Notes: generated by a model from the sequence alone, not told the origin. 64,000 bases of DNA from Acidimicrobiales bacterium (GCA_028285495.1 JANQPB010000038.1:34161-98160), one strand, 5' to 3'. Counted from the first letter of the stretch, positions 12,709 through 34,001 are shown. Numbers and translations are program-made.

Positions 12709-12786
12709 CGTCAGCGCCGGCACGACACCCGGGCCAGCACAGAACCGTGACCCCACCTTCCGGGGTCGACCCGTCAACCATGAACC
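12709..12786 (+). repeat. Left copy of a 78-bp imperfect direct repeat (candidate island boundary)
   Basis: CGTCAGCGCCGGCACGACACCCG... aligns without gaps to 33924..34001. I count 68 of 78 positions identical by hand. Weaker similarity extends ~20 nt further upstream. Confidence 0.7.
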
Positions 12787-12992
12787 CCGGGCTTCGCCTC
12801 TTGGGTTGACTTGGTTCGGTTTCGTAGCAGCGAGAGCGGGCCGAGGGTGGTGGCGATCCATGCGGCGAGGGGCCAGGCTGCGGTCTCCGTGGCGATGATG
12901 ATTGCGGCCCAGCTGGCCGAGATGAAGAGCCAGAGCCATGGCAGGCTGGCCTGCAGGCGGCGTTGTCGGCCGTTGGTGGGCTCAGGTCGCAT
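12774..12992 (-). CDS. Hypothetical small two-TM membrane protein
   Basis: ORF 12774..13001 taken from the ATG at 12992. Two hydrophobic helices (LPWLWLFISASWAAIIIA, AAWPLAAWIATTLGPLSLL) and G/C-biased third codon positions by eye. No recognisable family. Confidence 0.3.
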   Translation of the reverse strand: MRPEPTNGRQRRLQASLPWLWLFISASWAAIIIATETAAWPLAAWIATTLGPLSLLRNRTKSTQEAKPGVHG

Positions 12993-13031
12993 CGTTGGCA
13001 CCGGCGTCGATGAGGAGGACCAACAGGGTGG

Positions 13032-14054
13032 TCATGACGATTCGTCGGTCGTGGCTGGCTGGAACGTTGCGTGACGGAGGAACGTGCGGATGGTGGTGAG
13101 CGTCCGGTCCCGGTTGTCCCAGAACATGTCGTGGCCTGCGTCGGGGATGATGGCGAGCTCCGCGTTCGGGTAGGCGTCGGCGTGGCGGGCTTGGAGGTCG
13201 GGTCCGATCCAGGTGTTGCAGGCGCCGGCCAGGAACAGCACTGGCCCGTCGAATGCTGCGGTGTCGGCGCCTTGTGCGGTGAAGGTCTCTCCGGCCAGGG
13301 CGTCACCGGCGGTCTTCCCCCATCGCCATGACGGCGCGCCCCAGGCTCGGTCTGGGCAGTGGTAGGGGTTGTCGGGGTGGTTGGTGAAGGCAGGCAGGAT
13401 GCGTTGCCCGACGAGGTAGTCGGCGGTGGCGTGGTCGTCGGGACCATCGACGTGTTGGGCTTCGAATCCGGCTTCGATGGCGAGGCGGGTGTAGGCCCAT
13501 CCGGACATCAGCTCGTCGTAGCGTTCCTGCCACGCCTCGTACTCGGTGTCGTCGAGGTAGCCGGGTTCGGCGAGGACGGCGGCGGCGACCCGGTCGGGGT
13601 GATGGCGGAGGTACCCGGCGGCCAGGGTCGCTCCCCAGGAGTGCCCGATCAGGACGACGGGGGTGTCGGGGCTGTCGTGGCCGATGAATGCGTCGAGGTC
13701 CTCGAGGGCGGTGGTCGGGGTGAGGTGGTCGGCGGTGGTTCGGGCGGAGAGGCCGGCACCTCGTTGGTCGTAGAAGACCAGGTGGTAGCGGTCGGCGAGG
13801 TCGGTGAGCGCGAGGAGGGATCGATAGTCCCCGCCGGGGCCGCCGTGGAGCACGATCACGGTCGGGTGGTCGGGGTTGCCGTGGGTTTCGGCGTGGAAGA
13901 GGTGTCCGTTGAGCTCGACTCGGGGCAGGTCGGGGTCGTCGGCAACGGTTGGGAGGACCTGGTAGTCGCCGGCGGCTCGGACGTAGAGTCCGATCACGCC
14001 AGCGAGTCCGGCGACGGCGACGATCCCGAAGCCGATCAGGATTCGGATGATCAT
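13032..14054 (-). CDS. Alpha/beta hydrolase (proline iminopeptidase-like) with N-terminal membrane anchor
   Basis: VIVLHGGPGGDYRSL oxyanion region, nucleophile elbow GHSWGA, N-terminal TM (IIRILIGFGIVAVAGLAGVIGLYV). Confidence 0.85.
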   Translation of the reverse strand: MIIRILIGFGIVAVAGLAGVIGLYVRAAGDYQVLPTVADDPDLPRVELNGHLFHAETHGNPDHPTVIVLHGGPGGDYRSLLALTDLADRYHLVFYDQRGAGLSARTTADHLTPTTALEDLDAFIGHDSPDTPVVLIGHSWGATLAAGYLRHHPDRVAAAVLAEPGYLDDTEYEAWQERYDELMSGWAYTRLAIEAGFEAQHVDGPDDHATADYLVGQRILPAFTNHPDNPYHCPDRAWGAPSWRWGKTAGDALAGETFTAQGADTAAFDGPVLFLAGACNTWIGPDLQARHADAYPNAELAIIPDAGHDMFWDNRDRTLTTIRTFLRHATFQPATTDESS

Positions 14055-14135
14055 GGCCGCACTCCGATCAACGACCGAGTGGCTTCGGCGTGTGGTGCTG
14101 GCTGGCTCGAGTGCATTGGCGGATCGCCTTTCGGG

Positions 14136-14678
14136 TTAGGGGGTGACCCAGAGCTCGGGGTTGGGGCCGGTGGTGATGACGGCGCCGGTTACGTTCACTG
14201 GGTTGGGGGTCCACGAGACGCCGTTGCCCGTGGTGAGCTGGTTGCCGAACAGGGCGTCGAGGTTGGAGGTTGGTTCGCCGGCCAGTGCGATGCTGGGTTC
14301 GCCACATTGAGGCGGGTCGGACTCGGCCAGAGCGGCGCACAGGCGGGGGATCTGGTCGACGGTGACGACGAACCCGGCGACCTGGTGGAGGTTGTCGTCG
14401 CCGATCTCGAGGACCTCGGCGACCGAGAGTGGTGTGTCGGATGGTGCGGTGGTCGCCGGGGGCTCGGTGCCCGTCGAACCCGTCGATGTGGGAACTGTGG
14501 TTGGCGTCGTGGTGGCTAGCTGGTCGCTGGTGGTCGTCGTCGGGTCGGTACCGGCGGTGGTGTTGTCGTCGCTGCCGCAGCTGGCGAGGGCCAGGACGGC
14601 GACGAGGACGACGGGGCCGAGCCATCGCCCCAGGATTGATCGATCCGATGTCGTGACGAGCTTGAGGTCGGTGGTCAT
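14136..14678 (-). CDS. Hypothetical lipoprotein
   Basis: Signal peptide with lipobox LALASC followed by a Thr/Pro-rich linker. No family recognised. Confidence 0.6.
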   Translation of the reverse strand: MTTDLKLVTTSDRSILGRWLGPVVLVAVLALASCGSDDNTTAGTDPTTTTSDQLATTTPTTVPTSTGSTGTEPPATTAPSDTPLSVAEVLEIGDDNLHQVAGFVVTVDQIPRLCAALAESDPPQCGEPSIALAGEPTSNLDALFGNQLTTGNGVSWTPNPVNVTGAVITTGPNPELWVTP

Positions 14679-14771
14679 GGGGAGCTTCCTGGTGATTGGT
14701 TGCGGCTGTCGTTTGTCTGAGGACTTGATGCTCGGGGGCGGTGGTATGGGTGGTCTTCACACTCGTGGTCT

Positions 14772-14787
14772 TCTCACCCGGGTGAGT
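14772..14787 (-). promoter_or_regulatory. Palindrome copy a (TCTCACCCGGGTGAGT), candidate LAL operator/promoter
   Basis: 15 of 16 positions palindromic. It lies ~101 nt upstream of the lipoprotein start. In gene orientation it is followed after 21 nt by CCCATACC. Confidence 0.5.
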
Positions 14788-14861
14788 CCCGGCGCCCAGG
14801 GGCGTTCGGCTGGGCTGGGGATGTGCCGGGGGCCGCCCCTGGGCACTGATGTGTCGGCGGA

Positions 14862-15662
14862 TCAGGGGTCGCTGCGGTGGGTGACGACGATGCCGATGAG
14901 CAGGGCGGCTGCGGCGTAGCCGGCGAAGATGAGGGCGCTGGTGGCCGGCGGGAAGGCGGTCGCTTCGTCTTCGTTGATGATGCCGAGCATGCCGTTGCCG
15001 GCGACGAAGGGCAGGAAGCGGGCGTAGCGCTCGTCGATGAAGACGGTGCCGAGACTCTCGACGACCAGCCACCACACCAGCAGCCCGGAGATGGCGGCTG
15101 CGCTGTGGCGGGCGATGAGACCGATCCCGAGACCGAGGAGCCCGGACAGGGTGGCGAACCCGACGGACCAGCCGACCGTGGACGGGATGGTGGAGGTGTC
15201 CCCCATCTCGACTCCACCGATCGTGGCCCCACCGAAGCCGGCGGCCAGGCCAGCCGCTGCGAGGGCCGCAGCGAAGACCGCGACGGTTGCGGTCTTGGCT
15301 GCGATCACGACGTGTCGCCGGGGTTGGGCGGCATAGGTCTGGGGCAGGGTCCGGTGTTCGGCCTCGGTGGTGATCGTCAAGATCCCGGCCACCGCGGCGA
15401 ACACGGCGGTGAAGACGGTCGAGAACGAGAACACGCCGGCCACGGTGACGACCTCGTCGGTGACGAGGGTGGCGACGAGAAAGGCGGCGAGGCCGCCAAC
15501 GAGGACGGTGAGAGCGGCGACGGCCCGGTAGGAGCGGACGGTTGTCAGCTTCACCGTCTCGCTGCGCAGGGCCGCCATGATGCCGGGTCCACGCCCGGTC
15601 GGTGCCCGCTCGGCGGCGGGTTCGGCTGCGTGGTTGAGGGGTGGGGTGGCGAGGGTGGTCAT
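14862..15662 (-). CDS. ABC-2 type transporter permease
   Basis: Six-TM profile typical of ABC-2 permeases, immediately downstream of the ATPase gene. Confidence 0.75.
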   Translation of the reverse strand: MTTLATPPLNHAAEPAAERAPTGRGPGIMAALRSETVKLTTVRSYRAVAALTVLVGGLAAFLVATLVTDEVVTVAGVFSFSTVFTAVFAAVAGILTITTEAEHRTLPQTYAAQPRRHVVIAAKTATVAVFAAALAAAGLAAGFGGATIGGVEMGDTSTIPSTVGWSVGFATLSGLLGLGIGLIARHSAAAISGLLVWWLVVESLGTVFIDERYARFLPFVAGNGMLGIINEDEATAFPPATSALIFAGYAAAALLIGIVVTHRSDP

Positions 15663-15701
15663 GGGATGTCTCTCCGTTCGTGTGCTGAGGACTGTGGGTG
15701 G

Positions 15702-16598
15702 TCAGGTCGAGGCGAACTCGGCTGAGCTGTGGGTCAGGTCGACCAGGACGTCCTCGAGGGAGGCGTGGTGGTCGGTGAGTTCGTCGAGGCGGATCTGGTG
15801 GTCGAGAGCCAGCTGGGCGACGGTCGATCGGTCGGCGCCGGTGACGCTGAGCCGGTCCCGGTCGGTCCGTTCGGAGGCCAGGCCATGTTCGTGGAGGAGC
15901 TGTTCGAACCGGTCGGCGTGCTCGGTTTGGGCCACCACTGCGGTCTCGGCAGCGCCGGCGATGGACTCGATCGGTGCGGCGGCCAGGAGCCGGCCGGCGC
16001 CGATGACGACGATGTCGTCCGCGAACATGGCCAGCTCGCCGATGAGGTGGCTGGACACGAACACGGCCCCGCCCTGGTCGGCGTAGTCGCGTAGGAAGGT
16101 GCGGAGCCAGCGGATGCCGTCGGGGTCGAGCCCGTTTGCCGGCTCGTCCAACATCAGCGTCTCGGGCTCACCGAGCAGGGCGGCGGCCAGGGCCAGGCGC
16201 TGACCCATGCCGAGCGAGAACCCGCCCACCCGCTCATCGGCGGCCGTGGTCAGCCCGACCTGGTCGAGGACGGCGTCGACCCGGCTGGTGGGGATGGCGC
16301 TCGCTGTGGCGAGGGTGCGGAGGTGGTTGCGGGCGCTGCGCCCGGGGTGAGCGGCGGCCTCCAAGGCGACCCCGATGGTGCGGGCCGGATGCGCCAGCGC
16401 CCGGTAGGAGGTGCCGTTGAAGGTGACGGTGCCGGTGTCGGGTCGGGTGAGGCCGACCATCATCCGCATGGTGGTCGACTTGCCCGATCCGTTTGGGCCG
16501 ACGAACCCGGTGACCCGCCCGCTGGTGATGCTGAACGAGAGGTTGTCGACGGCTCGGCGGGAGCCGTAGGTCTTGGTGAGTCCTTCGACGGTGATCAT
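15702..16598 (-). CDS. ABC transporter ATP-binding protein (DrrA/ABC-2 type)
   Basis: ORF 15702..16823 trimmed to the ATG at 16598 (MITVEGLTKTYG). Walker A GPNGSGKST, signature LSLGMGQRL, Walker B LMLDEP. Confidence 0.9.
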   Translation of the reverse strand: MITVEGLTKTYGSRRAVDNLSFSITSGRVTGFVGPNGSGKSTTMRMMVGLTRPDTGTVTFNGTSYRALAHPARTIGVALEAAAHPGRSARNHLRTLATASAIPTSRVDAVLDQVGLTTAADERVGGFSLGMGQRLALAAALLGEPETLMLDEPANGLDPDGIRWLRTFLRDYADQGGAVFVSSHLIGELAMFADDIVVIGAGRLLAAAPIESIAGAAETAVVAQTEHADRFEQLLHEHGLASERTDRDRLSVTGADRSTVAQLALDHQIRLDELTDHHASLEDVLVDLTHSSAEFAST

Positions 16599-17317
16599 CG
16601 GACCACCTCGGCGTTGGCGGTGGTCGGGGTGGGGTTGCGGAACAGGACGACACCGACCCAGGCGAACCAGGCGATGAGGCCGAGGCCGAAGACGATGCCG
16701 ACGTCTTCGAGGCCGGGGATGACGGTGATCAGTCCTGAGATGGCGCTGATGATGCCGAGGGCGTTCAGCGAGCGAGGCAGGGCTTTGGTGGTCCAGGCGG
16801 CCACGCTGACCAGGAGGACCCACATGCCGCCGACGAGCTCGTTACCGCCGCCGAGGCCGTTGGTGACGGCGTCGATGCTGGACCACAACGCCTCGGCCTG
16901 GGCCGGGTCGGTCTCGGCCAGGTCACCGACGGCGGTGATGCCGATGTTGTGGATCATGCCGGTGGCGAACATCAAGCCGGCCCAGATGTAGGCGAACACC
17001 GCCCCGATGTCGGCCAGCTGGGGGCTTGCGTCCCGGAGCCGGTGGTGGAGGGTCCGGGCCAGGGGGATGATGGCCGCCCCGAAGACCAGGAAGATCACGA
17101 GGTACCAGACGAAGAACGTGGCCTCGTTCTCGCCGAGGAAGGCCACCGACTCGGCCGGCGTCGGGTCACCGGAGGTGTAGTCGATCAAGCTGGTGGCGAA
17201 CAGCGCGATCCCGAAGATGAACGTGGCGGCAGCCACCAGCGCGCCGATGGCCCCGGCTTTCGCCCCGCTGGGTTCGTGCCCGGCCGGGCTCTGGGTGGTG
17301 ATGAGTGTGTTGGTCAT
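16595..17317 (-). CDS. Multi-pass membrane protein, DUF4386-like
   Basis: About six hydrophobic helices. ATGA overlaps with both neighbouring genes. Architecture resembles 28645..29367, but the family call is tentative. Confidence 0.6.
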   Translation of the reverse strand: MTNTLITTQSPAGHEPSGAKAGAIGALVAAATFIFGIALFATSLIDYTSGDPTPAESVAFLGENEATFFVWYLVIFLVFGAAIIPLARTLHHRLRDASPQLADIGAVFAYIWAGLMFATGMIHNIGITAVGDLAETDPAQAEALWSSIDAVTNGLGGGNELVGGMWVLLVSVAAWTTKALPRSLNALGIISAISGLITVIPGLEDVGIVFGLGLIAWFAWVGVVLFRNPTPTTANAEVVR

Positions 17318-17568
17318 GGGTCTTGCCTTTCACTGGTTGAGTTGGTGGGTTGATGTGCATCGTGGGGGGTGAGGCTGATGATCTCGGCGGTGACCGAGGT
17401 GAGGTGGGCCAGAACGCCGTGGAGGTGGGCGGGGTCTCGGATGACGCCAGTCAGCCGGGTCCTGCCGGGTTCGGGGTGGTCGACGGCGAAGTCGTCGAGT
17501 AGGGGGCGCAGGATGCGCTCGGTGGCACGGCCTCGGACCACGATCTCGTAGGTGGTTGGCTCGTTCAT
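17314..17568 (-). CDS. Small conserved hypothetical protein (84 aa) heading the exporter operon
   Basis: ORF 17314..17619 trimmed to the ATG at 17568 (MNEPTTYEIVVRGRATERIL). A truncated paralogue with an identical RBS context lies at 27208. Confidence 0.6.
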   Translation of the reverse strand: MNEPTTYEIVVRGRATERILRPLLDDFAVDHPEPGRTRLTGVIRDPAHLHGVLAHLTSVTAEIISLTPHDAHQPTNSTSERQDP

Positions 17569-17618
17569 GGCCTCACCATCCCCGACGACGATGTGAGCCC
17601 ACATCACCACGCCGGCCA

Positions 17619-17634
17619 TCTCACCCGGGTGAGA
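17619..17634 (-). promoter_or_regulatory. Palindrome copy b (TCTCACCCGGGTGAGA), candidate LAL operator in a divergent promoter region
   Basis: Perfect 16-bp palindrome. Its centre is 58.5 nt from the small-protein ATG. It is followed after 21 nt by CTCACATC. Confidence 0.55.
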
Positions 17635-17693
17635 TCGCCGCCCGACGGCACCCGACCCGCCGGGATCGAGACACGCTTTCTAGGCTTCAGGTC

Positions 17694-19898
17694 GTGGATG
17701 GTGAAACGGGGGTCACCTCGGTCGACACGATGACCCTGGTTGGCACGAAACTGACGGCGCCGACGCCACCGGCCCGCCTCGTTCGACGTTCCCGCCTCGA
17801 TGACGCACTGAGCACGGCGGTGCAGGATCCGGCGGTCAGGGTGGTCCTGGTCAGCGCCCCGGCCGGATCGGGCAAGTCGACCCTGGTGGCCGGGTGGTTG
17901 GAGACCACCGGCACCGCAGCGGCGTGGTTGCAGGCCGATGGCGCCGACCACGACCCCGCCCGATTCTGGTCCCATGCCATCGCCGCCGTCGCCCGCCGGC
18001 TACCCGACCTGGAGCCGGCCGTGGCCCCGGCGATCCCCGGGTCTGCCGCCGATGCCCGACCCCTCATCGAGCGGTTGACCAACCACCTCACCACCCAAGC
18101 CGAGCCCGTGGTGTTGGTCATCGACGACTACCACCTGATCGCCAACCCCGACATCGACCACGGCATCGAACAACTCGTCGACCTCGCCCCGCCTTCGTTC
18201 ACGCTCATCGTGTCTTCTCGGCTCGACCCGACCCTGCGGCTCTCCAGACTGCGGGTCCGGGGACACCTCGCCGAGATCCGAGCTGACGACCTCCGGTTCG
18301 AACCCCAGGAAGCAGCAGGCCTGCTCGACCACCGAGGCGCCGCCCCGCTCCCCCATCAGATCGCCGCGCTCTGCGAACGAACAGAAGGATGGGCCGCCGG
18401 CCTCGTCCTGGCCGGGATCTCCCTCGCCGACAGCACCGATGCCGACGCGTTCGTCGCCGCGTTCCAGGGCGACGACCGGCTCGTCGTCGACTACCTGACC
18501 GAGGAGTTCCTGGCCGGTCTCGTGCCCGATGACCGACACCGGCTCCTGCAGACCTCGATCCTCGAGCGGCTCTCCGGGCCTCTCATCGACGCCGTCTGTG
18601 GCACGAACGATGGCGCCGGATGGCTACGTCGGATGGCGGCCGCCAACCAGCTCCTGATCGGCCTCGACCGGACGGGGACCTGGTTCCGCTACCACCACCT
18701 GCTTGCCGACCTCCTGAGGGTCGAGGCCGAGAACTCGATCCAGGCCGAGCTGGCGCAACTTCACCGGCGTGCCGGGGCCTGGCACCGCCACAACGGGACC
18801 GCCCTCGCCGCCGTCGAGCACTACCTTCACAGCGGCGACCACGCCGACGCCGCCGACCTCATCTGGGACGACGCAACCGAGCTGCTCAACAGCGGTCAAC
18901 TCGCCACCCTGCAACGCCAGATAGCCCGCCTCGGACCCCTGGCCGACCAGCATGTCGGCACCGCAACGGTCAACGGCTACCTCGCCCTCTTCACCAGACG
19001 CCTGGGCGACGCCCGCCACTACCTCGACCTGGCCCGCACCCTCGAGCCCAACAAGAACCAGACCCGACTCACCATCGCGCTGGCCGTCTACATCGCCATC
19101 GCCTCCGGCGACGTCGCCCGCGCACTCGAAGAAGCCCAGGCGTCCGAACATCCGACCGAGTCGGCCCAAACGCTGAGCCTGATCTGGGCTCACACCTGGG
19201 GCGGAGACCTCGATGCCGCCGAAGCCCTGCTCCCCGTGGCCGAGCGGCTCGCCGACCAAGAACACAACACGCTCGTCGCCGGCAGCGTCCCGATCTACGA
19301 GGGCATCATCGCCATCGAGAGCGGCCGCACCGCGGACGCCCGCCGGGCCGCCGAGCGGGCCCTCGAGATCGCCGAGGCGAACGGATTGGCCGATAGCACC
19401 AACGTCGCGCTGGCCCACAGCATCATCGGCCTCACCAGCGACGACCCCGCCCAAGCGATTGCAGCCGCGATGAGGGGGGTCGAGCTGGCAGACGAGACAG
19501 CCCTGATCCTCAGTCGCGGCTATGCGCTGGTCTCGGCCGCCGACGTGTTGTCTCGGCTCCAACATCCCGACAGCGACGCGATCCTGGGGCAAGCCCGAAC
19601 GGTCATCGACCGGTGCCCCGACCCCGGCATCATCGGCCAGTACGTCAACCAAGTCGAGGCCCGCCGCGGCACCCTACCCGCTCTGCCCGAGACCCCTGGG
19701 CTGGTGGAACGACTGACCGATCGCGAGCAGGCGGTTCTTCGCTACTTGCCATCGCAACTGACCCAGCGGGACATCGCCAACGAGCTCTACGTGTCGCTCA
19801 ACACCATCCGGACCCACTGCAAGTCGATCTACCGCAAACTCGGCGTCGGCGACCGCAAGACGGCGGTCCAGGCCGCCCGGGACAACGGCCTGCTCTGA
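17694..19898 (+). CDS. LAL/MalT-type LuxR-family regulator (STAND ATPase + TPR-like + C-terminal HTH), copy 1
   Basis: ORF 17556..19898. GTG at 17694 chosen by alignment with paralogue 3 (VDGE.. versus MDGE..). Walker A SAPAGSGKST, Walker B VVLVIDDYH, C-terminal LTDREQAVLRYL...SLNTIRTHCKSIYRKLGV. Confidence 0.9.
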   Translation: MDGETGVTSVDTMTLVGTKLTAPTPPARLVRRSRLDDALSTAVQDPAVRVVLVSAPAGSGKSTLVAGWLETTGTAAAWLQADGADHDPARFWSHAIAAVARRLPDLEPAVAPAIPGSAADARPLIERLTNHLTTQAEPVVLVIDDYHLIANPDIDHGIEQLVDLAPPSFTLIVSSRLDPTLRLSRLRVRGHLAEIRADDLRFEPQEAAGLLDHRGAAPLPHQIAALCERTEGWAAGLVLAGISLADSTDADAFVAAFQGDDRLVVDYLTEEFLAGLVPDDRHRLLQTSILERLSGPLIDAVCGTNDGAGWLRRMAAANQLLIGLDRTGTWFRYHHLLADLLRVEAENSIQAELAQLHRRAGAWHRHNGTALAAVEHYLHSGDHADAADLIWDDATELLNSGQLATLQRQIARLGPLADQHVGTATVNGYLALFTRRLGDARHYLDLARTLEPNKNQTRLTIALAVYIAIASGDVARALEEAQASEHPTESAQTLSLIWAHTWGGDLDAAEALLPVAERLADQEHNTLVAGSVPIYEGIIAIESGRTADARRAAERALEIAEANGLADSTNVALAHSIIGLTSDDPAQAIAAAMRGVELADETALILSRGYALVSAADVLSRLQHPDSDAILGQARTVIDRCPDPGIIGQYVNQVEARRGTLPALPETPGLVERLTDREQAVLRYLPSQLTQRDIANELYVSLNTIRTHCKSIYRKLGVGDRKTAVQAARDNGLL

Positions 19899-20201: not shown

Positions 20202-22379
20202 TCAGAGGAGGCCGAGGTCTCGGGCGGTTTGGACCGCGGTCTTGCGGTCGGTGACTCCGAGCTTCCGGTAGATCGCTCGGCAGTGGCTCTTGACCGTGTT
20301 GAGCGACACGTAGAGCTCCGAGGCGATGTCACGCTGGGAGAGCTCGCTCGGCAGGAGCCGGAGCACCGCATACTCACGATCGGTGAGCTCCTCGATCAAT
20401 TCGACGATCTTGGGCGCTGCGACGTCGGTCCCGTGGCGGCTCTCGGCTCGGGCCAGGAAGACACCGGTGAACCCAGGATCGGGACAGCGATCGATGACCG
20501 TTCGGGCTTCGGCAAGAAGGCCAGGACCCTCGGGATCGCCCTGGACGCTCAAGACGTCGCCTGCGCTCACCAAGGCGTAGGCCAACATGAGGAACTCTGG
20601 AGCTCGTCGAGCCAGCTCGACTCCTCGGCGGGCCGATCTGGCCGCCTCTGCGGGGTCGGTAGAGGTGCGGGCCACGATGCTGTGGGCCAGTGCAGTTTGC
20701 GGGGCTTCGGTCAGCGAGTAGCGGTCAGCGAGTTCGAGTGCGGTGCGGGCGTGACGCTCGGCCGAGGCGGGGGATCCGTCCTCGAGGTCGGCCGTGGCGA
20801 CCGAGATCGGAGCGATGGTAGCGACGAAGTGGTCAGGCTCAGCGGCCGCCATCTCAAGAGCGAGATCGAGGACGGGCCGAGCGTCGTCGAATCGACCGGC
20901 ACAGACCAGGGCCAGGCCCAGCGCCATGGCTTGGGTCGCCTCGGTCGGCTCCGTCGAGCCTGCCGCGGCGCCGAGCGCGCCAGCGACGTCACCAGCGGCG
21001 ATGTAGGTCATGATCCCGAGTGCGGCGATCAGGCCCTCGTCGGCGCCGTCGATATCGATCTGGTAGGCGGCGCGGTGGCATCGTTTGGCCTCGGCGAAGC
21101 GGCCGGCAATAAGTGCCACCCAGCCACGGACCACCAGGGCACCGACGTGGGTATCGGCCACGTCTCCGAGCCGATCGAGGTGCCCGATCACGGTTCGGAG
21201 CTGACCGCCATTGAGCAGCGCCGTTGCGTGTTCGACGATGAGGTCTGCGGCTGTCGCCCGTTCTCCCGCTGACAGGTAGTGCTCGATGGCATCGTGCATG
21301 CTGCCGTTGAGTCGGTGCCAGTCAGCGGCCGCCCGATGGAGGTCCGCCATTTGGTCGGCGAGTGCCGTCTCAGCCTCGAGCAGAAGAAGATCTCGGAGCA
21401 GATGGTGGTAGCGGTACCACGTCCCCGACCGATCCAGCCCGATGAGAAGCTGGTTGGTGGCAGCGGTCCGGCGGAGCCACGCTCCCCCACCGCCAAGCCC
21501 AGTCACCGCATCGATCAGTGGGCCGGTCAATCGCTCCAGCACCGACGTCGCCAACAGCCGCTGCCGATCCTCATCGGTGACGGTTGCGAGCAGCTCGTCG
21601 CTCAGGTAGTCGACGATCAACTGGTCGTCGCCCCGGAACCCATCAACGAACCCATCGATGCTGCTGGCCGACCGCATCGAGAGCTCGGCGAGAACGAGGC
21701 CGGCCGCCCACCCCTCGGTCCGTTGTACCAGCGCACCGACGATCTCGGCATCGATCGAGGCCGAACTGAGGAGCGGGCCGGCCTCGGCCCGGTCGAACCG
21801 CAGGTCGGCAGCTCTGATCTCGGTCAGCTGACCTCTCACCCGGAGCCGCCCCAACCGGAACGGTGGATCCATCCTGGTCGACAGGACCAGGGTGACCTGT
21901 GGTGGACACAACTCGATCAGCCGTTCCACCTCAGATTGGACCTGGTCGCTGTCGATCACGTGATAGTCATCGATCACGACCACGAGAGGAGTCGTCAGCG
22001 CAGACAGCGCGTTCGCCAGGGCCGCCACCAAACCAGTGCCGTCGGCCGCAGCGCTCGGCACCCGAGGGCCGACGCTTGCCTCGACCTTGGGATCGATACG
22101 CCCGATTGCGGCCACGACGTAGGACCAGAAACGAGCCGAATCGGAGTCGCTGCTCTCGGCCTGGAACCACGCCACGGGCGATGGGCGCTCGGAAAGCCAC
22201 CCAGCGAGCAACGTCGACTTGCCCGCACCAGCCGGGGCGCTGAGCAGCACCATCCGATGACGCTCATCCAGGGCGAGGTCGAGCAACTCGTGCAGTCGTG
22301 GCCGCACCACGAATGGGCCTGGGAGCGTCGGTGGGACCAGTTTGGTCAGCACCAGCTCGCCGGCGTCGGTGTCGGTCAT
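20202..22379 (-). CDS. LAL/MalT-type LuxR-family regulator, copy 2 (more divergent)
   Basis: Walker A SAPAGAGKST, Walker B VVVIDDYH, C-terminal LTDREYAVLRLL...SLNTVKSHCRAIYRKLGV. Confidence 0.9.
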   Translation of the reverse strand: MTDTDAGELVLTKLVPPTLPGPFVVRPRLHELLDLALDERHRMVLLSAPAGAGKSTLLAGWLSERPSPVAWFQAESSDSDSARFWSYVVAAIGRIDPKVEASVGPRVPSAAADGTGLVAALANALSALTTPLVVVIDDYHVIDSDQVQSEVERLIELCPPQVTLVLSTRMDPPFRLGRLRVRGQLTEIRAADLRFDRAEAGPLLSSASIDAEIVGALVQRTEGWAAGLVLAELSMRSASSIDGFVDGFRGDDQLIVDYLSDELLATVTDEDRQRLLATSVLERLTGPLIDAVTGLGGGGAWLRRTAATNQLLIGLDRSGTWYRYHHLLRDLLLLEAETALADQMADLHRAAADWHRLNGSMHDAIEHYLSAGERATAADLIVEHATALLNGGQLRTVIGHLDRLGDVADTHVGALVVRGWVALIAGRFAEAKRCHRAAYQIDIDGADEGLIAALGIMTYIAAGDVAGALGAAAGSTEPTEATQAMALGLALVCAGRFDDARPVLDLALEMAAAEPDHFVATIAPISVATADLEDGSPASAERHARTALELADRYSLTEAPQTALAHSIVARTSTDPAEAARSARRGVELARRAPEFLMLAYALVSAGDVLSVQGDPEGPGLLAEARTVIDRCPDPGFTGVFLARAESRHGTDVAAPKIVELIEELTDREYAVLRLLPSELSQRDIASELYVSLNTVKSHCRAIYRKLGVTDRKTAVQTARDLGLL

Positions 22380-22649
22380 CGCTTCACGTGCCGATAGATC
22401 GATGCCCGGCTCACCCCGACCACCTCAGCGATCGCGGCCACCGTGTCGTCACCGGTATCGAGCATCCTGCGAGCGGTGGCGATCTTGTCCGGCGTCATGA
22501 CGCTCGGCCGACTCGGGCGGCTCATCCAACGCACCAGACGCGTGGTCGGTGAACAACCGGGAACAGCCAGCTACCTCCAGGGCGTCGACTTGCAGCGACG
22601 GATCCTGATCTGCTGCCGAGACCCGCGCATAGCCCAGGAGTTCCCCCAT
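22376..22649 (-). pseudogene. Serine recombinase (resolvase/invertase family) relic with internal deletion and frameshift
   Basis: The N-terminal piece MGELLGYARVSAADQDPSLQVDALEVAGCSRLFTDHASG carries the catalytic-Ser motif. In another frame, 22376..22498 encodes only the C-terminal HTH (MTPDKIATARRMLDTGDDTVAAIAEVVGVSRASIYRHVKR). The ~100-aa catalytic core between them is missing. Confidence 0.7.
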
Positions 22650-22813
22650 CTCCCGCGACACTATCTCAGAGAGGCTCATGGAGAAGGCTCGTGAGACGTT
22701 GACTTCGGACACGAGTTCCGAACACCGACCGGAGGTTCTCCATCACCCCGGGCCCGCTTGTCCCAGAATCGTTCGTTGCGGAGATGCCAGACCGAGGTCC
22801 CCGCCCGTCTCGT

Positions 22814-23885: not shown

Positions 23886-23898
23886 GCTGGCTTATTTG

Positions 23899-23910
23899 GA
23901 ACGTACGTTC
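23899..23910. promoter_or_regulatory. 12-bp perfect palindrome GAACGTACGTTC, candidate TetR operator
   Basis: It lies in an AT-richer patch (TTATTTGGAACGTACGTTCAAGAAAGG) 14-23 nt upstream of the possible starts of the membrane-protein/TetR operon. Confidence 0.4.
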
Positions 23911-24513
23911 AAGAAAGGTTGGCCCTGCCTCGTTCCCAGAATCGAGTCGCAACACGAAGCCGGTCTGGCTCGACGGCGCCAACGCCCCGGGAAGGCCGGC
24001 CTTCCCAGGCCGCTTGGCAACGGGACCACTCGGGGTCCCGGCGGGCATCCTTGCCTCGACTTCTGCTTGGTTCTCACCTTCGAGGGAAGCCAGACTCCGC
24101 CATCCGGTGATCCCTGCGCAGCGCCGGTGCCGCTACCCAGACGGGAGGTGACTCCCGGCGCCTCGCGTTGATCAGCTCGTCGCTCGTGGCCAGCCGCACT
24201 CGAGGAGCGCAGCGGGCCAAGCCCATCGGCGGCAGGCGGATTGGTCGCAGTGGGCGGCATCGTCGCCATCGTTTGCAGCGGCTCGATACCAGCTCTTGCG
24301 AAACCAACGCGGGCCGCCGGGGTCGGGCACGTACCCGCCTCGTCGCTGGCGACGCCGAGCAACCCGTCGTCATGCGAGCAGTTCCGGCGATATCGCTCTA
24401 CCTGACCACACCTTCATCTCAGCGACCGACAGTGGAACCCGTCTCCCCGCAGTCACTCAACGTGCTCACCAGCCTCTGACCCGCAAGCTCGTTGCAGCAG
24501 TGACTCCCACCTC

Positions 24514-24887: not shown

Positions 24888-27092
24888 CTAGAGCAGGTCG
24901 TGATCTCGGGCGGCCTGAACCGCAGACTTGCGGTCGCTCACACCGAGCTTGCGGTAGATGGCCTTGCAGTGGGTCCGCACGGTGTTGAGCGACACGTACA
25001 ACTCGCCGGCGATATCTCGATGGGAGAGTTGCGACGGCAGGTACCGCAACACGGCGTGTTCGCGGTCCGTCAGCTTCTCCACCAAGCCCGGCGAGTCGGG
25101 CGGTGCGGGGAGCGTGCCCTGGCGGGCCTCGACGCGGTGGAGGTACTGGCCGACGATGCCCGGGTCGGGGCACCGATCGAGAATCGTTCGGGCTTGGCGC
25201 AGCAGATCATGGCCGTCGGGGTGGTCATGCCGAGACACGACCTCAGCCGCCGAGGTCAGGGCGTAGGCGCGGGTGAGGGCCATGGCGGTCTCGTCTGCGA
25301 GTGCAGCTCCCCGTCGAGCAGCTGCGACGGACTCGTCGGGTTGGTCGCTGGTCCGGCCGATGATGCTGTGAGCCAGCGCAACGCGGGTGGTGTCGTTCAA
25401 CCCCTCGGCGGCTGCGATGTCGAGCGCCCGTTCTGCGGCTCGTCTGGCATCAGCGGCGCCGCCGGTCTCGAGGGCGATGATGGCCTCGCAGACCGGGACG
25501 CTGGCAGCGACGAGGGTGTTGCCTTGTTGGTCCGCAAGCCGTTCGGCCACCCCCAGCAGGGAAGCCGCCTCGTCGAAGTCGCCGGCCCAGGTCCGAACCC
25601 AGATCAGGCTCAGGGCCTGGGCCGCCTCGGTCGGATGATCCGACGCCCGGGCTTCCTGCAGAGCGGAGCCGACGTCACCGGAAGCCATCGCGATGTAGAC
25701 GGCGAGCGCGATGGTCAGGCGGATCTCGTCGTCGTCAGGTCCGAGCGTGCGGGCCAGGTCGAGAGAGTACTGGGCGTCGGGGAGCCGCCCGGCGAACAAG
25801 GCGAGAAAGCCGCTGACGACCGTGGTGCCGACGTGTTCGTCGGCTAGCGGGCCGAGGCCAGTGATCTGGCGTCGGAGGGTGGCGAGTTGACCGCTGTTGA
25901 GCAGTTCGTTCGCCTCGTCATGGATGAGGTCGGCGGCCTCGTCGTGGTCACCACTGTTCAGGTAGTGCTCGATAGCGTCCATGGCTGAGCCGTGGTCGCG
26001 GTGCCATCCGCCAGCCCGTCGGTGGAGCTCGGCGAGCTCACCCCTGATCGAGTTCTCGGCCTCGACCCGGAGAAGGTCGGCGAGCAGGTGGTGGTAGCGG
26101 AACCAGGTGCCATTCCGGTCGAGGCCGATCAGCAGCTGGTTGGTGGCCGCCAAACGGCGGAGCCATCCGCCGCCATCGGTGATCTCGCACACGGCTTCGA
26201 CGAGGGGCCCGGAGAGGCGCTCCAGGATCGAGGTTCGCAGCAGCCGTTCCCGGTCCTCGGGTGGGAGACCGGCGAGGAACTCCTCGGTGAGGTAGTCGAC
26301 GACGAGGCGGTCATCGCCTTGGAACGCAGCGACGAAGGCGTCAGCATCTTCACTGTCGGCCAAGGACATGCCGGCCAGGACCAGACCGGCCGCCCAGCCC
26401 TCGGTTCGCTCACAGAGCGCGGCGACCTGGTGGGGAAGCGGGGCGGAGCCTTGCCGGCCGAGCAACACCGCAGCTTCGGGAGGTGCGAAGCGGAGATCAT
26501 CGGCCCGGATCTCGAGCAGACGACCACGAACCCGGAGCCTTGAGAGCCGAAGTGACGGGTCGACCCGGGAGCACACGACGAGGGTGAAGGTGGGCGGGGC
26601 CAGGTCGACGAGTCGCTCGATGCCATGGTCGACGTCCTGGTTGGCGATCAGGTGATAGTCGTCGACGACCAACGTGACCGGCTCAGCCCACTGTTCGAGG
26701 TGATTGGCCAGACGCTCGATCAGTGGCCTGGCGTCCGCACCCGACCCTGGGACGGTCGACGCCACGGCACGGTCGAGCCCGGGCAGCTGCCGGCCGAGCG
26801 CGGCGACCGCATGGGTCCAGAAGCGGGCCGGGTCGTGATCGGCGCTGTCAGCTTGCAGCCAGCCGGCAGCGATCTCGGCGGCGTGCAACCAGGCCGCCAC
26901 GAGGGTCGATTTGCCCGAGCCGGCCGGGGCACTCACGACGACCACCCGAACCCCCGGATCGCCGATCCCGGCGCTGAGGGCGTCTTCGAGCCGAGAACGC
27001 CGAACCAGCTGCACTGGCGGTGTCGGGGCGGTCACCTTCGTGCCGACGAGAGTCACCGTGTCAGCCGTGGCCACCCTCACCTCACCATCCAC
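24888..27092 (-). CDS. LAL/MalT-type LuxR-family regulator, copy 3 (close paralogue of copy 1, inverted orientation)
   Basis: I count 67 of 92 N-terminal residues identical to copy 1 by hand alignment. Walker A SAPAGSGKST, C-terminal LTDREHAVLRYL...SLNTVRTHCKAIYRKLGV. Confidence 0.9.
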   Translation of the reverse strand: MDGEVRVATADTVTLVGTKVTAPTPPVQLVRRSRLEDALSAGIGDPGVRVVVVSAPAGSGKSTLVAAWLHAAEIAAGWLQADSADHDPARFWTHAVAALGRQLPGLDRAVASTVPGSGADARPLIERLANHLEQWAEPVTLVVDDYHLIANQDVDHGIERLVDLAPPTFTLVVCSRVDPSLRLSRLRVRGRLLEIRADDLRFAPPEAAVLLGRQGSAPLPHQVAALCERTEGWAAGLVLAGMSLADSEDADAFVAAFQGDDRLVVDYLTEEFLAGLPPEDRERLLRTSILERLSGPLVEAVCEITDGGGWLRRLAATNQLLIGLDRNGTWFRYHHLLADLLRVEAENSIRGELAELHRRAGGWHRDHGSAMDAIEHYLNSGDHDEAADLIHDEANELLNSGQLATLRRQITGLGPLADEHVGTTVVSGFLALFAGRLPDAQYSLDLARTLGPDDDEIRLTIALAVYIAMASGDVGSALQEARASDHPTEAAQALSLIWVRTWAGDFDEAASLLGVAERLADQQGNTLVAASVPVCEAIIALETGGAADARRAAERALDIAAAEGLNDTTRVALAHSIIGRTSDQPDESVAAARRGAALADETAMALTRAYALTSAAEVVSRHDHPDGHDLLRQARTILDRCPDPGIVGQYLHRVEARQGTLPAPPDSPGLVEKLTDREHAVLRYLPSQLSHRDIAGELYVSLNTVRTHCKAIYRKLGVSDRKSAVQAARDHDLL

Positions 27093-27158: not shown

Positions 27159-27207
27159 TCGGCCGGTTGTGAGGCCGACTCACATCACCAGCGGGGATGG
27201 TGAGGCC

Positions 27208-27342
27208 ATGGACAAGCCCACTACCTACGAGATCGCGATTTCGGGTCGGGCCACCGAACGCCTGCTCGGCCGGCTGACGGACGACTTCGTGGTCGATCGG
27301 CCGGCCCTGCCCCCAGGCCGTGACCGCCGGAGGTGTCCATGA
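27208..27342 (+). pseudogene. Truncated paralogue (44 codons) of the 84-aa small protein
   Basis: MDKPTTYEIAISGRATERLLGRLTDDFVVDRP aligns with MNEPTTYEIVVRGRATERILRPLLDDFAVDHP. It then diverges and stops, overlapping the next gene start. Too short to appear in the ORF track. Confidence 0.5.
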
Positions 27343-29367: not shown

Positions 29368-29543
29368 CACCCAGCCGCCCTTCAACCCGACGTGTGCACT
29401 CGACAACTATGGGACCATCTGAATGTCGAGTGTCCAGGACCGGTTCCGCTCGACGAGACGAGGTCGAATGGCTCGTGGTTGATGCCGAGACCGAGCTGCC
29501 CTGGGCTCGTGACTGAGCCGATTCCGACCCCGAGACAGGACCG

Positions 29544-30599: not shown

Positions 30600-30642
30600 G
30601 GATCTCCAGTGGTTATGCGGTGAGCGGAAGCGCTGCGTCGGT

Positions 30643-30780
30643 TCAGGGCGACTCGGGTCCTTCGTCAATCGTGATCTCGAAGGTGCTGGCCAGTGCACGG
30701 GGCTCGACTGCGCCGGGCAACAGGTAGCTGGCGTTGCGCTGCTCGAGTGCGGCGAGCTCGGCTTGGTTGGTCGGTGTCAC
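30643..30780 (-). CDS. Possible 45-codon ORF translationally coupled to the SDR gene
   Basis: Its GTG overlaps the SDR stop (GTGA). Encodes VTPTNQAELAALEQRNASYLLPGAVEPRALASTFEITIDEGPESP with G/C-rich third positions. No family recognised. Confidence 0.3.
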   Translation of the reverse strand: MTPTNQAELAALEQRNASYLLPGAVEPRALASTFEITIDEGPESP

Positions 30781-31736
30781 GAGCCGCTCTCTTGAGGGTC
30801 GAGGTAGTCGCTGGCATCGACGCCGATGAGTGCCTGGGTCACAGCCCAGAGCTTGTCGATGTCGTCGGGGTCGAAGTGGGAGTCGTCGATCTCGGTCGGA
30901 ACCGGTGCTCCCGTCGCCTCGAATCTCGACCCCGGGGCGTACACCTTGTCGGGCTTGACGTTGTCGGCGATGAGCGCCTCCACTGCCGGGAGCGCTCCGT
31001 GGTAGAGGTCGTGGCTCAGACGCAGCCAGCCCGACACGCGCATCAGGGCACGGGAACCGAATCGAGCGATGGCCGAGTCGGCTGAGTGTCCGAGATTGGT
31101 TCGAGCCCATCCGGGGTGACACGCCAACGACATCGATGTCGAACCGATCCGCTCGAACTCTCGCTGGAGCTTGACGGCGAACAGGATGCTGCAGAGCTTC
31201 GCCTTGCAGTACTCCTGCATCTGGTTGAAGTCATCCGCACGCGTGACCTGCAGGTTGTCGACGTCGAGGTCGTTCCGGAGGAACCGCTTGTAGCCCATGC
31301 TCGAGAACGTCACGACGCGGCTCCCATCTCTCAGGACCGGCAGCAGCTGGATCGTGAGTGCGACGTGACCGAAGTAGTTGACGGCCATCTGACCCTCGAG
31401 ACCGTCATCGGTCGTCATGAAGTGGGACGGGCCGCCGCCAGCGTTGTTCGCCAGGAAGTCGACCTTGTCGTACTCGCCGGTGATGCGATCGCAGAAGCGC
31501 CTGATGCTGTCGAGGTCGGCGAGATCGACGATCTCGAGACGGAGATCGGCGCCGGGCACCTCGCCGAGAAGTCGAGATCGTGCCTCCTGCAGCTTCGCTT
31601 CGTTGCGTGACGCCATGATCACCGTGCAGCCGTGCTTGGCGAGGTGAGACGCAATCCCGTAGCCGGTGCCACTGTTGGAGCCGGTGACGATCGCCACCTT
31701 GCCGGCGAGGTCAGGGATGTTCTCGTGGTTGTTCAT
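30777..31736 (-). CDS. Short-chain dehydrogenase/reductase (retinol-dehydrogenase-like)
   Basis: ORF 30777..31982 trimmed to the ATG at 31736. TGSNSGTGYG cofactor motif, NNAG, and YCKAK (YxxxK) active site. Confidence 0.9.
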   Translation of the reverse strand: MNNHENIPDLAGKVAIVTGSNSGTGYGIASHLAKHGCTVIMASRNEAKLQEARSRLLGEVPGADLRLEIVDLADLDSIRRFCDRITGEYDKVDFLANNAGGGPSHFMTTDDGLEGQMAVNYFGHVALTIQLLPVLRDGSRVVTFSSMGYKRFLRNDLDVDNLQVTRADDFNQMQEYCKAKLCSILFAVKLQREFERIGSTSMSLACHPGWARTNLGHSADSAIARFGSRALMRVSGWLRLSHDLYHGALPAVEALIADNVKPDKVYAPGSRFEATGAPVPTEIDDSHFDPDDIDKLWAVTQALIGVDASDYLDPQESGS

Positions 31737-31840
31737 GGTCTCCTCGTCGGCGCGGTGCTGGGGTTTGCGGTGGTAGGGCGGCGGCGCCGTTTCGACGCCG
31801 CCGCCGTTCGGGACTCGTGGATGAGCGGGCGGCCCGGCCG

Positions 31841-32761
31841 CTACTTGTTGAAGAACTCGGCGACGGCGTCGGTCGAGGCCTTCACCGCGTCGGGCTTGTA
31901 GTAGAAGTCGACGTGGCCGAACTGCTCGAAGGTGATGACCTCCGGATCGTTGGTCAGCTTGTCCACGAAGTTGACCGAGCACACGCTCGTGTGGGCCCCG
32001 GTGCTGTAGATCACGAGCGTCGGCTGCGTGATCTTGTCGGCGTAGTGCTCACCGATCGAGATGAGCGACTGCATCGCCTGGTCGCCGATGTGCTGGGTCG
32101 TGAAGTTCGGGATCGTCCCCGGCCCGGCGAAACCGTCCTTGCCGTAGTAGCCGTAGGTCTCGTCGGCCATCGGGACTCCGGTGGCGACGAACTCCTCGAG
32201 GGTCATCGAGTCGTTGAGCACGATGGGCCAGGCGAGGTCGGCTTCGCCGGTCTCGTACATCTTCTGCCTCGAGGCGTTCGCCGCGGCGATCATCTGATCG
32301 ACCATGGCCCGGTCGGTCCACTGGAACTGGTCGGCGGCCATCATGCCCGAGACGGTGGCGATCTTCTTGATGCGGTGATCGGTCACCGCGGCCGAGGCGA
32401 TGATCGAGCCCCCCTGACAGACCCCGAGTCCGTAGATCTCGTCGACGAAGGGAAGCGTCCCGAGATACGAGACCGCGTCCCAGGTGTTCTCGATCAGGCG
32501 GAACATGTAGCGCGACTTCATGTGCTCGCCGGGCAGGGCCGGCGAGTCACCCATGCCGAGGTAGTCGAAGCCGAGGGCGACGAACCCACGTGCCGCCATC
32601 TCGGGCCCGTAGGTGGCCATGACCTGGCCCCGCACCTGCGGGAACGGGCTGGCCAGCACGATGGCCTTGTAGGCCTTGGTCTCGTCGAAGTCGTCGGGGA
32701 GGTAGAGATCGCCGACGAGGTCGACGCCGAACGACGTGAAGGTCACTCGCTCCGTGGTCAT
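31841..32761 (-). CDS. Alpha/beta hydrolase
   Basis: ORF 31841..32821 trimmed to the ATG at 32761 (a GGAG lies upstream). LGFDYLGMGDS and a GVCQGGS nucleophile-elbow-like motif. Confidence 0.75.
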   Translation of the reverse strand: MTTERVTFTSFGVDLVGDLYLPDDFDETKAYKAIVLASPFPQVRGQVMATYGPEMAARGFVALGFDYLGMGDSPALPGEHMKSRYMFRLIENTWDAVSYLGTLPFVDEIYGLGVCQGGSIIASAAVTDHRIKKIATVSGMMAADQFQWTDRAMVDQMIAAANASRQKMYETGEADLAWPIVLNDSMTLEEFVATGVPMADETYGYYGKDGFAGPGTIPNFTTQHIGDQAMQSLISIGEHYADKITQPTLVIYSTGAHTSVCSVNFVDKLTNDPEVITFEQFGHVDFYYKPDAVKASTDAVAEFFNK

Positions 32762-32920
32762 CAGAACTCCATTCTTGGGGAGGTTGGTTGCGTGGCTGTA
32801 GGGCTCATGCCGTCTTGCCATGTGCTTGAACGTTCTTTACGCTAGACCTCGTCAGGGCAGCCGAATACCCTGCTTGGCCTCGTTTAGTTGCACAATCCCC
32901 TCAGACGCATCGGAGCAGTC

Positions 32921-33832
32921 GTGACGACACCCAGCGACATCGCCGCCAAGATCGCCAGCCACGTGCCCCACGACGGCCCAGTGTCGACGCCCCTCGATGG
33001 CGTGCAGCTCTTCCGCATGTCCGAACCCGTGGCCCGGGTCGCCGGGGTCTACGACCCGAGCCTGTGCGTCATCGCACGGGGCGCGAAGCACGCGTATCTC
33101 GGGACCCACACCCACACCTACGCAGCAGGCCACTACCTGACTGCCACCATGCCAACACCGGTCGAGGCCGAGATCCGCCATGCGTCCCCCGACGAACCCG
33201 TGTTGGGCGCGCTCATCAACCTGCAGTCACGAACCATGACCGAGCTCGTCGTGCAGCTTCGGTCCATCACCCCCGAGCCCCCGCCGCCGACCGACGACGT
33301 CGCCGGCCTCACCGTCACACGGTGGGACAACCGATTCACCACCGCACTCGACCGCGCGCTCGACCTGCTCGACTCCCCGATCGACATCGATCTCCTGGGG
33401 CCCGGCCGACTCCGCGAACTGCTCTACGCCGTCCTGCGAGGACCCGCCGGACCCTCGATCCGCCACCACCTCGGCGGCCCCGCGTCAGACCTGAGCAACG
33501 TCTTGACGTTCATGCGCAACAACCTCGACCAACCCCTCGCGATCGACGACCTCGCCGACCAAGCCGGCATGAGCCGAGCCGCATTCGACCGCCACTTCAA
33601 AACGACAACCACGCTGTCCCCACTGAAGTACCTCAAGACCCTCCGACTCAACGACGCCGCCATGCTCATCGCCAACGGCACCGACATCGGCACCGCAGCA
33701 AGACGAGTCGGCTACACCAACGCCTCACAATTCAGCCGAGAGTTCAAACGCCAGTTCGGCCACTCCCCCCGAAGCTGGGCCACCACCAACGCCGGCGCCA
33801 CAGACCCACAAGCCATGGCCAACACTGCATAG
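32921..33832 (+). CDS. AraC-family transcriptional regulator (AraC_N/cupin-like N-terminus + dual HTH)
   Basis: ORF 32888..33832. GTG at 32921 preferred (GGAG 9 nt upstream). C-terminal LAIDDLADQAGMSRAAFDRHFK...VGYTNASQFSREFKRQFG. Confidence 0.85.
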   Translation: MTTPSDIAAKIASHVPHDGPVSTPLDGVQLFRMSEPVARVAGVYDPSLCVIARGAKHAYLGTHTHTYAAGHYLTATMPTPVEAEIRHASPDEPVLGALINLQSRTMTELVVQLRSITPEPPPPTDDVAGLTVTRWDNRFTTALDRALDLLDSPIDIDLLGPGRLRELLYAVLRGPAGPSIRHHLGGPASDLSNVLTFMRNNLDQPLAIDDLADQAGMSRAAFDRHFKTTTTLSPLKYLKTLRLNDAAMLIANGTDIGTAARRVGYTNASQFSREFKRQFGHSPRSWATTNAGATDPQAMANTA

Positions 33833-33923
33833 CGCCGCGCAACTCCGGAGCTCTCGCGTCACCCTGCCGAGCTCGATCGCACTGATCGTTCTCATCGCCG
33901 GCCACGGGCAGGAACCGCACAAC

Positions 33924-34001
33924 CGTCAGCGCCGGCACGACACCCGCTCCGGCACAGAACCGTCACCCCACCGTCCGCGGCCGACCGGTCGACGATGAAC
34001 C
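33924..34001 (+). repeat. Right copy of the 78-bp imperfect direct repeat
   Basis: Aligns to 12709..12786 and lies ~110 nt from the 3' end of tRNA-Ile. Confidence 0.7.

Follow-up and report, generated by a model that had tools for sequence, protein, structure and literature searches.

Two direct repeats around a 21-kb segment at tRNA-Ile of an Acidimicrobiales bacterium are probably left-end relics of an IS481-family insertion sequence rather than integration scars

What does a direct repeat tell us when it brackets a block of accessory genes beside a tRNA gene? The question is raised by a stretch of 64,000 nucleotides (nt) from the replication-origin region of an uncultured Acidimicrobiales bacterium (GCA_028285495.1, JANQPB010000038.1:34161-98160; 69% G+C), which was analysed as a whole and is called the window from here on. 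A 78-bp sequence is present twice in it, on the two sides of a segment of about 21 kb, and one of the copies is located shortly downstream of tRNA-Ile(GAT). A preliminary description of this DNA interpreted the pair as an attL/attR-like duplication left by an old integration event. Our analysis led to a different identification. With a probability of roughly 85%, both copies are decayed left-end fragments of a single lineage of an insertion sequence (IS) of the IS481 family, the left-end region concerned being the terminal inverted repeat together with the subterminal transposase-binding repeats.

The two copies (Table 1) align without gaps and are identical at 68 of 78 positions (87%, that is, 13% diverged), with a perfect run of 23 nt, CGTCAGCGCCGGCACGACACCCG, at the 5' ends of both; the identity and the length of the run are as the preliminary description had reported. 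In blastn the pair scored 96.9 bits, whereas in 30 dinucleotide-preserving shuffles of the whole window the best non-self match was at most 51.8 bits, with a mean of 39.6; the similarity is far beyond chance. Only two copies occur in the window. Their direct orientation and intergenic siting were confirmed, save for the last 13 nt of the left copy, which overlap an open reading frame (ORF) of 72 amino acids annotated on a Logan contig (12774-12992, minus strand; no Pfam match; G+C at third codon positions, GC3, 0.77). Convergent genes flank both copies. The left copy starts 33 nt past the stop codon (12675) of the ScdA/RIC di-iron gene and the right copy ends 108 nt from the 3' end of tRNA-Ile, in agreement with the 34 nt past the nar operon and the approximately 110 nt first given. 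The weaker similarity said to extend about 20 nt further upstream is marginal (p of about 0.02 for about 50 nt, local alignment against shuffles) and lies partly within the coding end of RIC. At the tRNA-proximal edge the similarity ends abruptly (p 0.73). The exact 23-mer had no match among 185,579 species genomes, a set that does not include the source genome, and a search with the motif TGACGGTTSTG gave nothing meaningful-looking besides the two copies. A 20-mer core gave 30 matches in metagenome contigs; these matches were attributed to chance, as the alignments reached about 36 nt at most and the majority covered only 20-25 nt.

The nature of the repeat becomes apparent when the region downstream of tRNA-Ile is compared with related loci (labelled with L numbers). 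The right intergenic region of the window aligns, at the same offset, with the DNA downstream of tRNA-Ile in L065, L068, L042 and L050, and its identity to L065 and L068 is 64-67% over about 160 nt (blastn). Locus L068 contains an intact IS of 1681 bp (12515-14195) that starts 96 nt after tRNA-Ile, has TGT...ACA ends and is bordered by a 14-bp target-site duplication, TGGTAACCAGGGAA. Its transposase of 476 amino acids reaches 294 bits with the IS481-family model NF033577 of NCBIfam, for which the cutoff is 224. At the same place L042 carries a frameshifted copy (11826-13572) with recognisable inverted ends, and the single copy of the element behind tRNA-Ile in L065 is there an IS end. Overall, the 1.7-kb IS of related genomes is located about 97-130 nt past tRNA-Ile. 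Other copies were fetched through homologues of the transposase, of which there are roughly 8,000, and show this conserved left end in different genomic surroundings. Target-site duplications of 12-15 bp accompany this IS.

A profile was built from seven IS left ends of other genomes, three of them not at tRNA-Ile, with no window sequence included. In the window, nhmmer searches with this profile gave two matches, at 34012-33950 (E = 6.7e-5, profile positions 1-62) and at 12786-12743 (E = 5.8e-4, profile positions 12-54); the next-best match in the 64 kb had an E-value of 0.22, and a four-sequence left-end profile returned the same two top matches. Terminal homology is present, as the right relic opens with TGTGCTGTTCCGG at IS position 1. 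At its inner side, a weaker similarity to the IS left end runs on to about 33882, as seen with a five-sequence profile that includes the window copy, while no similarity was found beyond 12786, outside the left copy. These results show the right copy to be an IS remnant at the usual place of the family, about 97-98 nt past the tRNA and beyond its terminator; its left end is turned towards the tRNA, IS positions 1 to about 91-130 are kept, and the transposase gene and the right end are lost. They also show that the left copy is a shorter remnant (positions about 12-91) of a closely related IS in the same orientation, found today between the segment and the nar/RIC cluster and stripped of its tRNA context. 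The two window copies are 87% alike as compared to about 60-65% (by eye) with respect to other IS copies, and, since they share derived differences from the family consensus, they represent one sub-lineage.

Table 1. Features of the locus, with positions counted from the first nucleotide of the window.
Feature	Position	Strand	Basis or remarks
ScdA/RIC di-iron protein gene	11962-12675	plus	Pfam PF04405 + PF01814; last gene of the nar cluster
Left repeat copy	12709-12786	minus	Truncated, from IS position 12 on (GGTTCATGGTTGAC...); outer 11 nt and tRNA context missing
Accessory segment	12787-33923		Pfam, composition, absence in relatives
Serine-resolvase relic	22376-22712	minus	PF00239, 25.8 bits; PF02796 (HTH_7), 35.5 bits
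Right repeat copy	33924-34001	minus	IS positions about 12-91; within the left-end profile region
Right relic, outer part	33950-34012	minus	IS position 1 (TGTGCTGTTCCGGTTCAT...) at 34012, reading leftwards
Tandem 12-nt duplication	34020-34043	minus	GGGCCAGCAATC / GGGCCAGCAGCA (given on the plus strand); spacer just outside the IS end
Intrinsic terminator of tRNA-Ile	34079-34104	minus	Hairpin CCCGC...GCGGG followed by a T run
tRNA-Ile(GAT)	34110-34184	minus	ARAGORN; Rfam RF00005, 75 bits

The assignment to the IS481 family is based on the intact relatives, which encode a single transposase with HTH, rve and rve_3 domains and have TGT...ACA termini with imperfect terminal inverted repeats, and, for the window copies, on a left-end match that is in register. 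The window copies differ from family members in that they are left-end fragments only, with neither transposase nor right end. In the IS481 family (ISfinder), target-site duplications measure about 4-15 bp, and classical IS481 is about 1.05 kb long. The intact relatives are longer than the latter; they have a C-terminal extension with two Mu-transposase C-terminal-2 domains, and long subterminal repeat arrays. As pointed out in a review, IS481 and Tn7-like elements share TGT/ACA ends (PMC11406308). The possibility that subterminal repeats and tRNA proximity denote Tn7-like ends was considered and dropped, since the element turned out to be an IS of 1.7 kb with one gene and a target-site duplication of its own. 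Another unit was observed in L065 (3116-5479), where an IS left-end relic is followed by an ORF of 429 amino acids with a TIR domain (PF13676). A perfect direct repeat of 24 nt, CTGTGAGCCATTCTGTGAGCCATC, flanks the whole 2.3-kb unit, which may be an IS derivative in which the transposase has been swapped for a defence-type gene.

Several observations weigh against the identification of the repeats as IS relics. No remnant of a transposase was found in the window with tblastn, using three parts of the L042 transposase, and a right-end profile gave a best E-value of 1.7 in the window; near the left copy, neither a right end nor the boundary of a large transposon was found; relic status is therefore carried by the left end by itself. 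The E-values of the left-end profile are modest (1e-4 to 1e-3), the independent support spans only IS positions 1-62 for the right copy and 12-54 for the left one, and the innermost part of the repeat, which includes the perfect 23-mer, is alike only between the two window copies. Both relics, in parallel, have lost the body and the right end of the IS and have kept the same left-end stretch. Moreover, the order of events is inferred and much less certain than the identity of the copies, given that every scenario that we built needs at least three events. The preliminary description had named a dispersed repeat family as the finding that would speak against integration. In spirit this is what was found, namely a mobile multi-copy family, although the 78-mer itself has only two copies in the window.

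The identity of the repeats can be weighed against two other explanations. An attL/attR duplication, generated by the site-specific integration of an island at tRNA-Ile whose integrase has since been lost, would account for accessory genes that lie beside a tRNA and are bracketed by direct repeats, and in relatives tRNA-Ile serves integrases as a genuine hot spot. In fact, L080 holds a canonical integrated element at the same tRNA-Ile (10445-18913). It encodes a tyrosine integrase (PF00589), located 114 nt from the tRNA, as well as a Rep protein (PF23343), and the tRNA 3' end is repeated over 59 nt at a distance of 8.4 kb. In L043 such a repeat covers 53 nt and lies 0.9 kb away, and integrase fragments lie 2-2.5 kb after the tRNA, at contig ends, in L004 and L039. 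The duplicated tRNA ends of L080 and L043 serve as positive controls, and the window does not resemble them. The repeat extends from 109 to 186 nt beyond tRNA-Ile without overlapping it, no second copy of the tRNA, its terminator or the spacer was detected in the window by blastn, and the two copies are only 87% identical. Likewise, no tyrosine or large serine integrase was found by Pfam on all ORFs of the segment, the sole recombinase being a small resolvase relic in the middle of it. With respect to tRNA-linked islands and actinomycete integrative and conjugative elements of the pSAM2 type, of which L080 carries exactly such an example at tRNA-Ile, the window shares accessory DNA 3' of a tRNA between direct repeats and differs in that the repeat contains no tRNA sequence, is an IS end and is 13% diverged, and in that integrase, Rep and transfer genes are absent. 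Above all, the repeated sequence is an IS end that occurs behind many different tRNAs and elsewhere, which largely refutes an attL/attR integration scar; we regard this origin as very improbable. As a mark of att sites the repeat was a false lead, and it is unfit to delimit an integrase-type island, whereas the looser idea that accessory DNA was added beside a tRNA hot spot is plausible.

A functional non-coding element in two copies (a small RNA, an element of 3' untranslated regions, an operator or a small ORF) has equally little to recommend it and is hardly credible, even if both copies are intergenic, 3' of the convergent genes on either side, and are 87% conserved, as compared to 72-78% for the paralogous regulator genes of the segment. 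The folding z-scores of both copies on both strands range from -0.03 to +0.47 and thus give no sign of secondary structure, in line with the argument of the preliminary description against a structured RNA, and the tRNA is the only match of an Rfam scan of the window. A short frame (MNRNSTQ...), opened by an ATG at 33994, recurs in L065 and L068. This candidate was rejected, as the frame is frameshifted in the window, has 9 codons in the left copy and, in L065 and L068, falls inside the IS end and the spacer. The substitutions between the copies are not codon-like, with 5 of 10 changes at third positions in the best frame, and conservation across genomes is explained by the IS.

IS remnants are an ordinary kind of thing, and the part worth following is the targeting behaviour of the IS. 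When 12 IS copies with upstream sequence were chosen regardless of their context, 11 were found 85-110 nt after the 3' end of a tRNA (Met, Pro, Ser and others), and in all these tRNA-linked copies the left end faces the tRNA; the exception is L095. The copies considered of this IS, which is common in Acidimicrobiales (L042, L068, L093-L106 and the window), lie almost without exception 85-131 nt downstream of a tRNA, after its terminator, and one transposase (P0214) recurs unchanged behind several different tRNAs. The distance was also measured from the T-loop box (GTTCRAnyC) to the start of the IS. It was 106-111 nt at 10 loci, 118-119 nt at three, among which the window, 131 nt at one and 152-153 nt at two, and from the tRNA to the IS the steps are 87, 98, 110 and 131 nt. 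Just outside the left end a tandem duplication of about 12 nt is nearly always present, and it is with such duplications that the additional distance coincides. The duplication of the window is listed in Table 1; comparable ones, whose sequence is locus-specific, are present in L065 (3115-3139), L068 (12490-12514), L042 (11764-11825), L098 (about 190-219), L094, L097 and L106. As their length is that of the 12-15-bp target-site duplications, footprints of earlier insertion and excision are suggested, and the duplication of the window may be the target-site-duplication footprint of such an event. The alternative that the double 12-nt motif represents integrase arm sites was discarded, because its sequence is locus-specific and its length equals that of the target-site duplication.

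In L095, the IS481-family copy (1513-4529) is interrupted by a nested IS3-family element (ORFs 1690-2924) and has no adjacent tRNA. About 210 nt upstream of it there is a double motif (TTCTAACGG, twice), which is the same as that abutting the IS in L094 and L106. In L098, L101 and L102 the IS is found behind only the 3' half of a tRNA-Pro or tRNA-Met, within the left 60-110 nt; these half-tRNAs begin in the anticodon loop and are preceded by unrelated DNA. Such a pattern is expected if an integrase-type element integrated later into these tRNAs and the former 3' half was moved away along with the IS. Several of these contigs also appear to be chimeras joined at identical IS copies, their right flanks being exchanged.

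These distances led us to a tentative proposal, to which we assign somewhat less than an even chance. The IS may represent an undescribed kind of IS481-type element, common in Acidimicrobiales, that uses tRNA genes in general as a landmark and enters with a single orientation, the ruler-like distance being about 87 nt when taken from the tRNA 3' end or about 108 nt when taken from the T-loop box, with displacements in steps of about 12 nt; tRNA-Ile would then be a reusable safe-haven landing pad, at which two rounds of insertion are recorded, with 21 kb accreted between them. No description of tRNA targeting by IS481-type elements was found in the literature, which is no proof of novelty. The proposal can be compared with known transposons that use safe havens, such as Tn7 at attTn7 behind glmS, the tRNA-proximal type V-K CRISPR-associated transposons, the IS1202 group at dif sites, and the eukaryotic Ty3 and Dictyostelium TRE elements at tRNA genes. 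What the IS has in common with them is an oriented insertion that keeps a set, short distance to a conserved gene and does not disrupt it; with Tn7-like elements it also shares TGT/ACA ends and subterminal arrays of binding repeats. It differs in having a single gene, with no TnsC, TniQ, TnsD or guide RNA visible in its 1.7 kb, and, with respect to targeting of the attTn7 type, in being directed to many tRNA genes and not to one att site. If real and undescribed, this would be a compact, single-protein form of bacterial safe-haven targeting of a gene class, of interest for transposition mechanisms and possibly for targeted-insertion tools.

How the two relics came to lie 21 kb apart is much less certain than what they are, and for the arrival of the segment there are several scenarios. 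The left relic is most simply seen as an older occupant of the tRNA-Ile site, given that this IS hardly ever occurs at a distance from tRNA genes. An older IS would have occupied this site; accessory DNA would then have entered between the IS and the tRNA, pushing the older relic 21 kb away; the same IS would have targeted the vacated site again; and both copies would finally have decayed by internal deletion. We infer that the repeat does bracket DNA added at the tRNA; the repeat itself would result from repeated targeting by the IS, or from recombination between IS copies, and not from the duplication of a recombination site by an integrase.

Two other histories are compatible with remnants of one IS family. 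The segment may have come as one unit through its IS copies, either as a circular DNA with one IS that recombined with the chromosomal copy behind tRNA-Ile or by replicative transposition, as a cointegrate or composite transposon. Both routes would place two direct IS copies around the incoming DNA, with later decay of both; this would be an alternative history, and it leaves the identity of the repeats as IS relics intact. It would fit two relics of one IS sub-lineage that bracket the block in direct orientation, the absence of the block from relatives, its lower GC3 and a resolvase relic of a type typical of plasmids and transposons. Composite transposons and IS cointegrates of the IS26 or IS1 type similarly have two direct copies of one IS lineage around an accessory block, from which the window copies differ in being left-end fragments, one of them without its terminus, so that mobility and origin as a unit are putative. 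The left relic, however, lacks the outer 11 nt, and its outer flank has none of the tRNA, terminator and spacer that a donor IS should bring; the right end is present at neither copy, several later deletions would still be required, and the nar block past the left relic is just as lineage-specific. For these reasons entry as a unit appears rather unlikely. Two independent insertions of the same family, in the same orientation by chance, would tell nothing about the DNA in between. Such an account could appeal to the multi-copy nature of IS families (many contigs with this transposase are of IS length), to the 50% chance of equal orientation and to L095, a sampled copy that is not beside a tRNA. 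With 11 of the 12 sampled copies behind a tRNA, though, an insertion into the 3' flank of RIC would be exceptional, and the truncation of the left relic at IS position 12 is a sign of rearrangement rather than of primary insertion; we therefore consider independent insertions improbable. The history with an older and a younger occupant of the tRNA-Ile site is the one followed here.

The bracketed segment had been described as accessory-looking and as containing a recombinase relic, and on both points our results agree. Its metabolic genes encode three hydrolases of the alpha/beta or dienelactone type, an aldo-keto reductase and a short-chain dehydrogenase; there are also an ABC exporter pair and two DUF4386 proteins, and the regulators are three AAA_16 + GerE (LuxR/MalT-like) paralogues, one TetR and one AraC. 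The mean GC3 is 0.854, as compared to 0.908 in the left flank and 0.906 in the right one (Mann-Whitney p = 0.002). The G+C content is 67.5% vs. 69.0% and 70.6%, and the tetranucleotide correlation between segment and flanks is r = 0.974-0.975 vs. 0.985 between the flanks. The compositional shift proposed as a check in the preliminary description is thus present, and it is weak. The resolvase relic is split across two reading frames, with an N-terminal (PF00239) and an HTH_7 fragment, and the annotation of the Logan contig also calls a weak Resolvase at this place. Lower GC3 and the resolvase relic go together with the absence of this content from 59 related loci, and the 21-kb segment is plausibly acquired DNA.

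Within the segment, the resolvase relic sits between two regulator paralogues; after it come a TetR regulator, a small membrane protein and a stretch of about 1 kb without a convincing ORF (23900-24500). The three AAA_16 + GerE regulators (17556-19898, 20202-22379 and 24888-27092) share 72-78% nucleotide identity, and among them there is an inverted repeat of 1798 nt at 78% that reaches the upstream intergenic regions (17480-17610 and 27166-27296). The DUF4386 and hydrolase genes are likewise duplicated near the regulators, so that internal duplication has contributed to building the segment.

The related loci are 57 in number and come from Acidimicrobiales metagenome-assembled genomes (MAGs), gathered through an alignment of DUF3566 homologues. 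With L004 and L005 added (59 loci in all), no nar, RIC or segment gene was found within 10 kb of DUF3566/tRNA-Ile. The closest relatives (GyrA 89-92% identical) have other content, or a contig end, after tRNA-Ile, and the best RIC homologues are only 62% identical, too distant for an empty-site comparison; at the DNA level none of the genomes is near enough for one. The tRNA-Ile locus is hypervariable and an insertion hot spot in the order. Here the nar block is no less lineage-specific than the 21-kb segment, and hence the left copy marks no boundary between core and accessory DNA.

By contrast with what lies beyond it, tRNA-Ile is a conserved landmark that directly follows the DUF3566 gene in nearly all the 57 related loci, and its terminator is kept in L005, L038, L042, L050, L065 and L068. 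It is the landmark targeted by the IS and, in relatives, by tyrosine-integrase elements. To its right in the window, gene families named as called on the homologous locus L004 follow in the order tRNA-Ile, DUF3566, gyrA, gyrB, a DciA-like gene, recF, dnaN and dnaA. To the left of the segment, the nar cluster has the order NarG, NarH, an Rrf2 regulator, two MFS transporters and RIC, with an HxlR regulator and a cytochrome c ahead of NarG.

More widely, where Acidimicrobiales MAGs show short, imperfect direct repeats close to tRNAs, these can be solo IS ends of this kind, and the same IS is also a probable cause of assembly breaks right behind tRNA genes. In this organism and its relatives, assemblies end in or just after tRNA-Ile, or inside the IS, in L002, L036/L003 and L050, which is consistent with repeats (tRNA and IS) and strain variation at this place. 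Finally, on the par/jag side of the origin (55056-55174), we observed 5-6 tandem copies of a 19-nt unit, GACGGCGACGACGAGCGGA. If this region is coding, the array is unusual, as 19 is not divisible by three.

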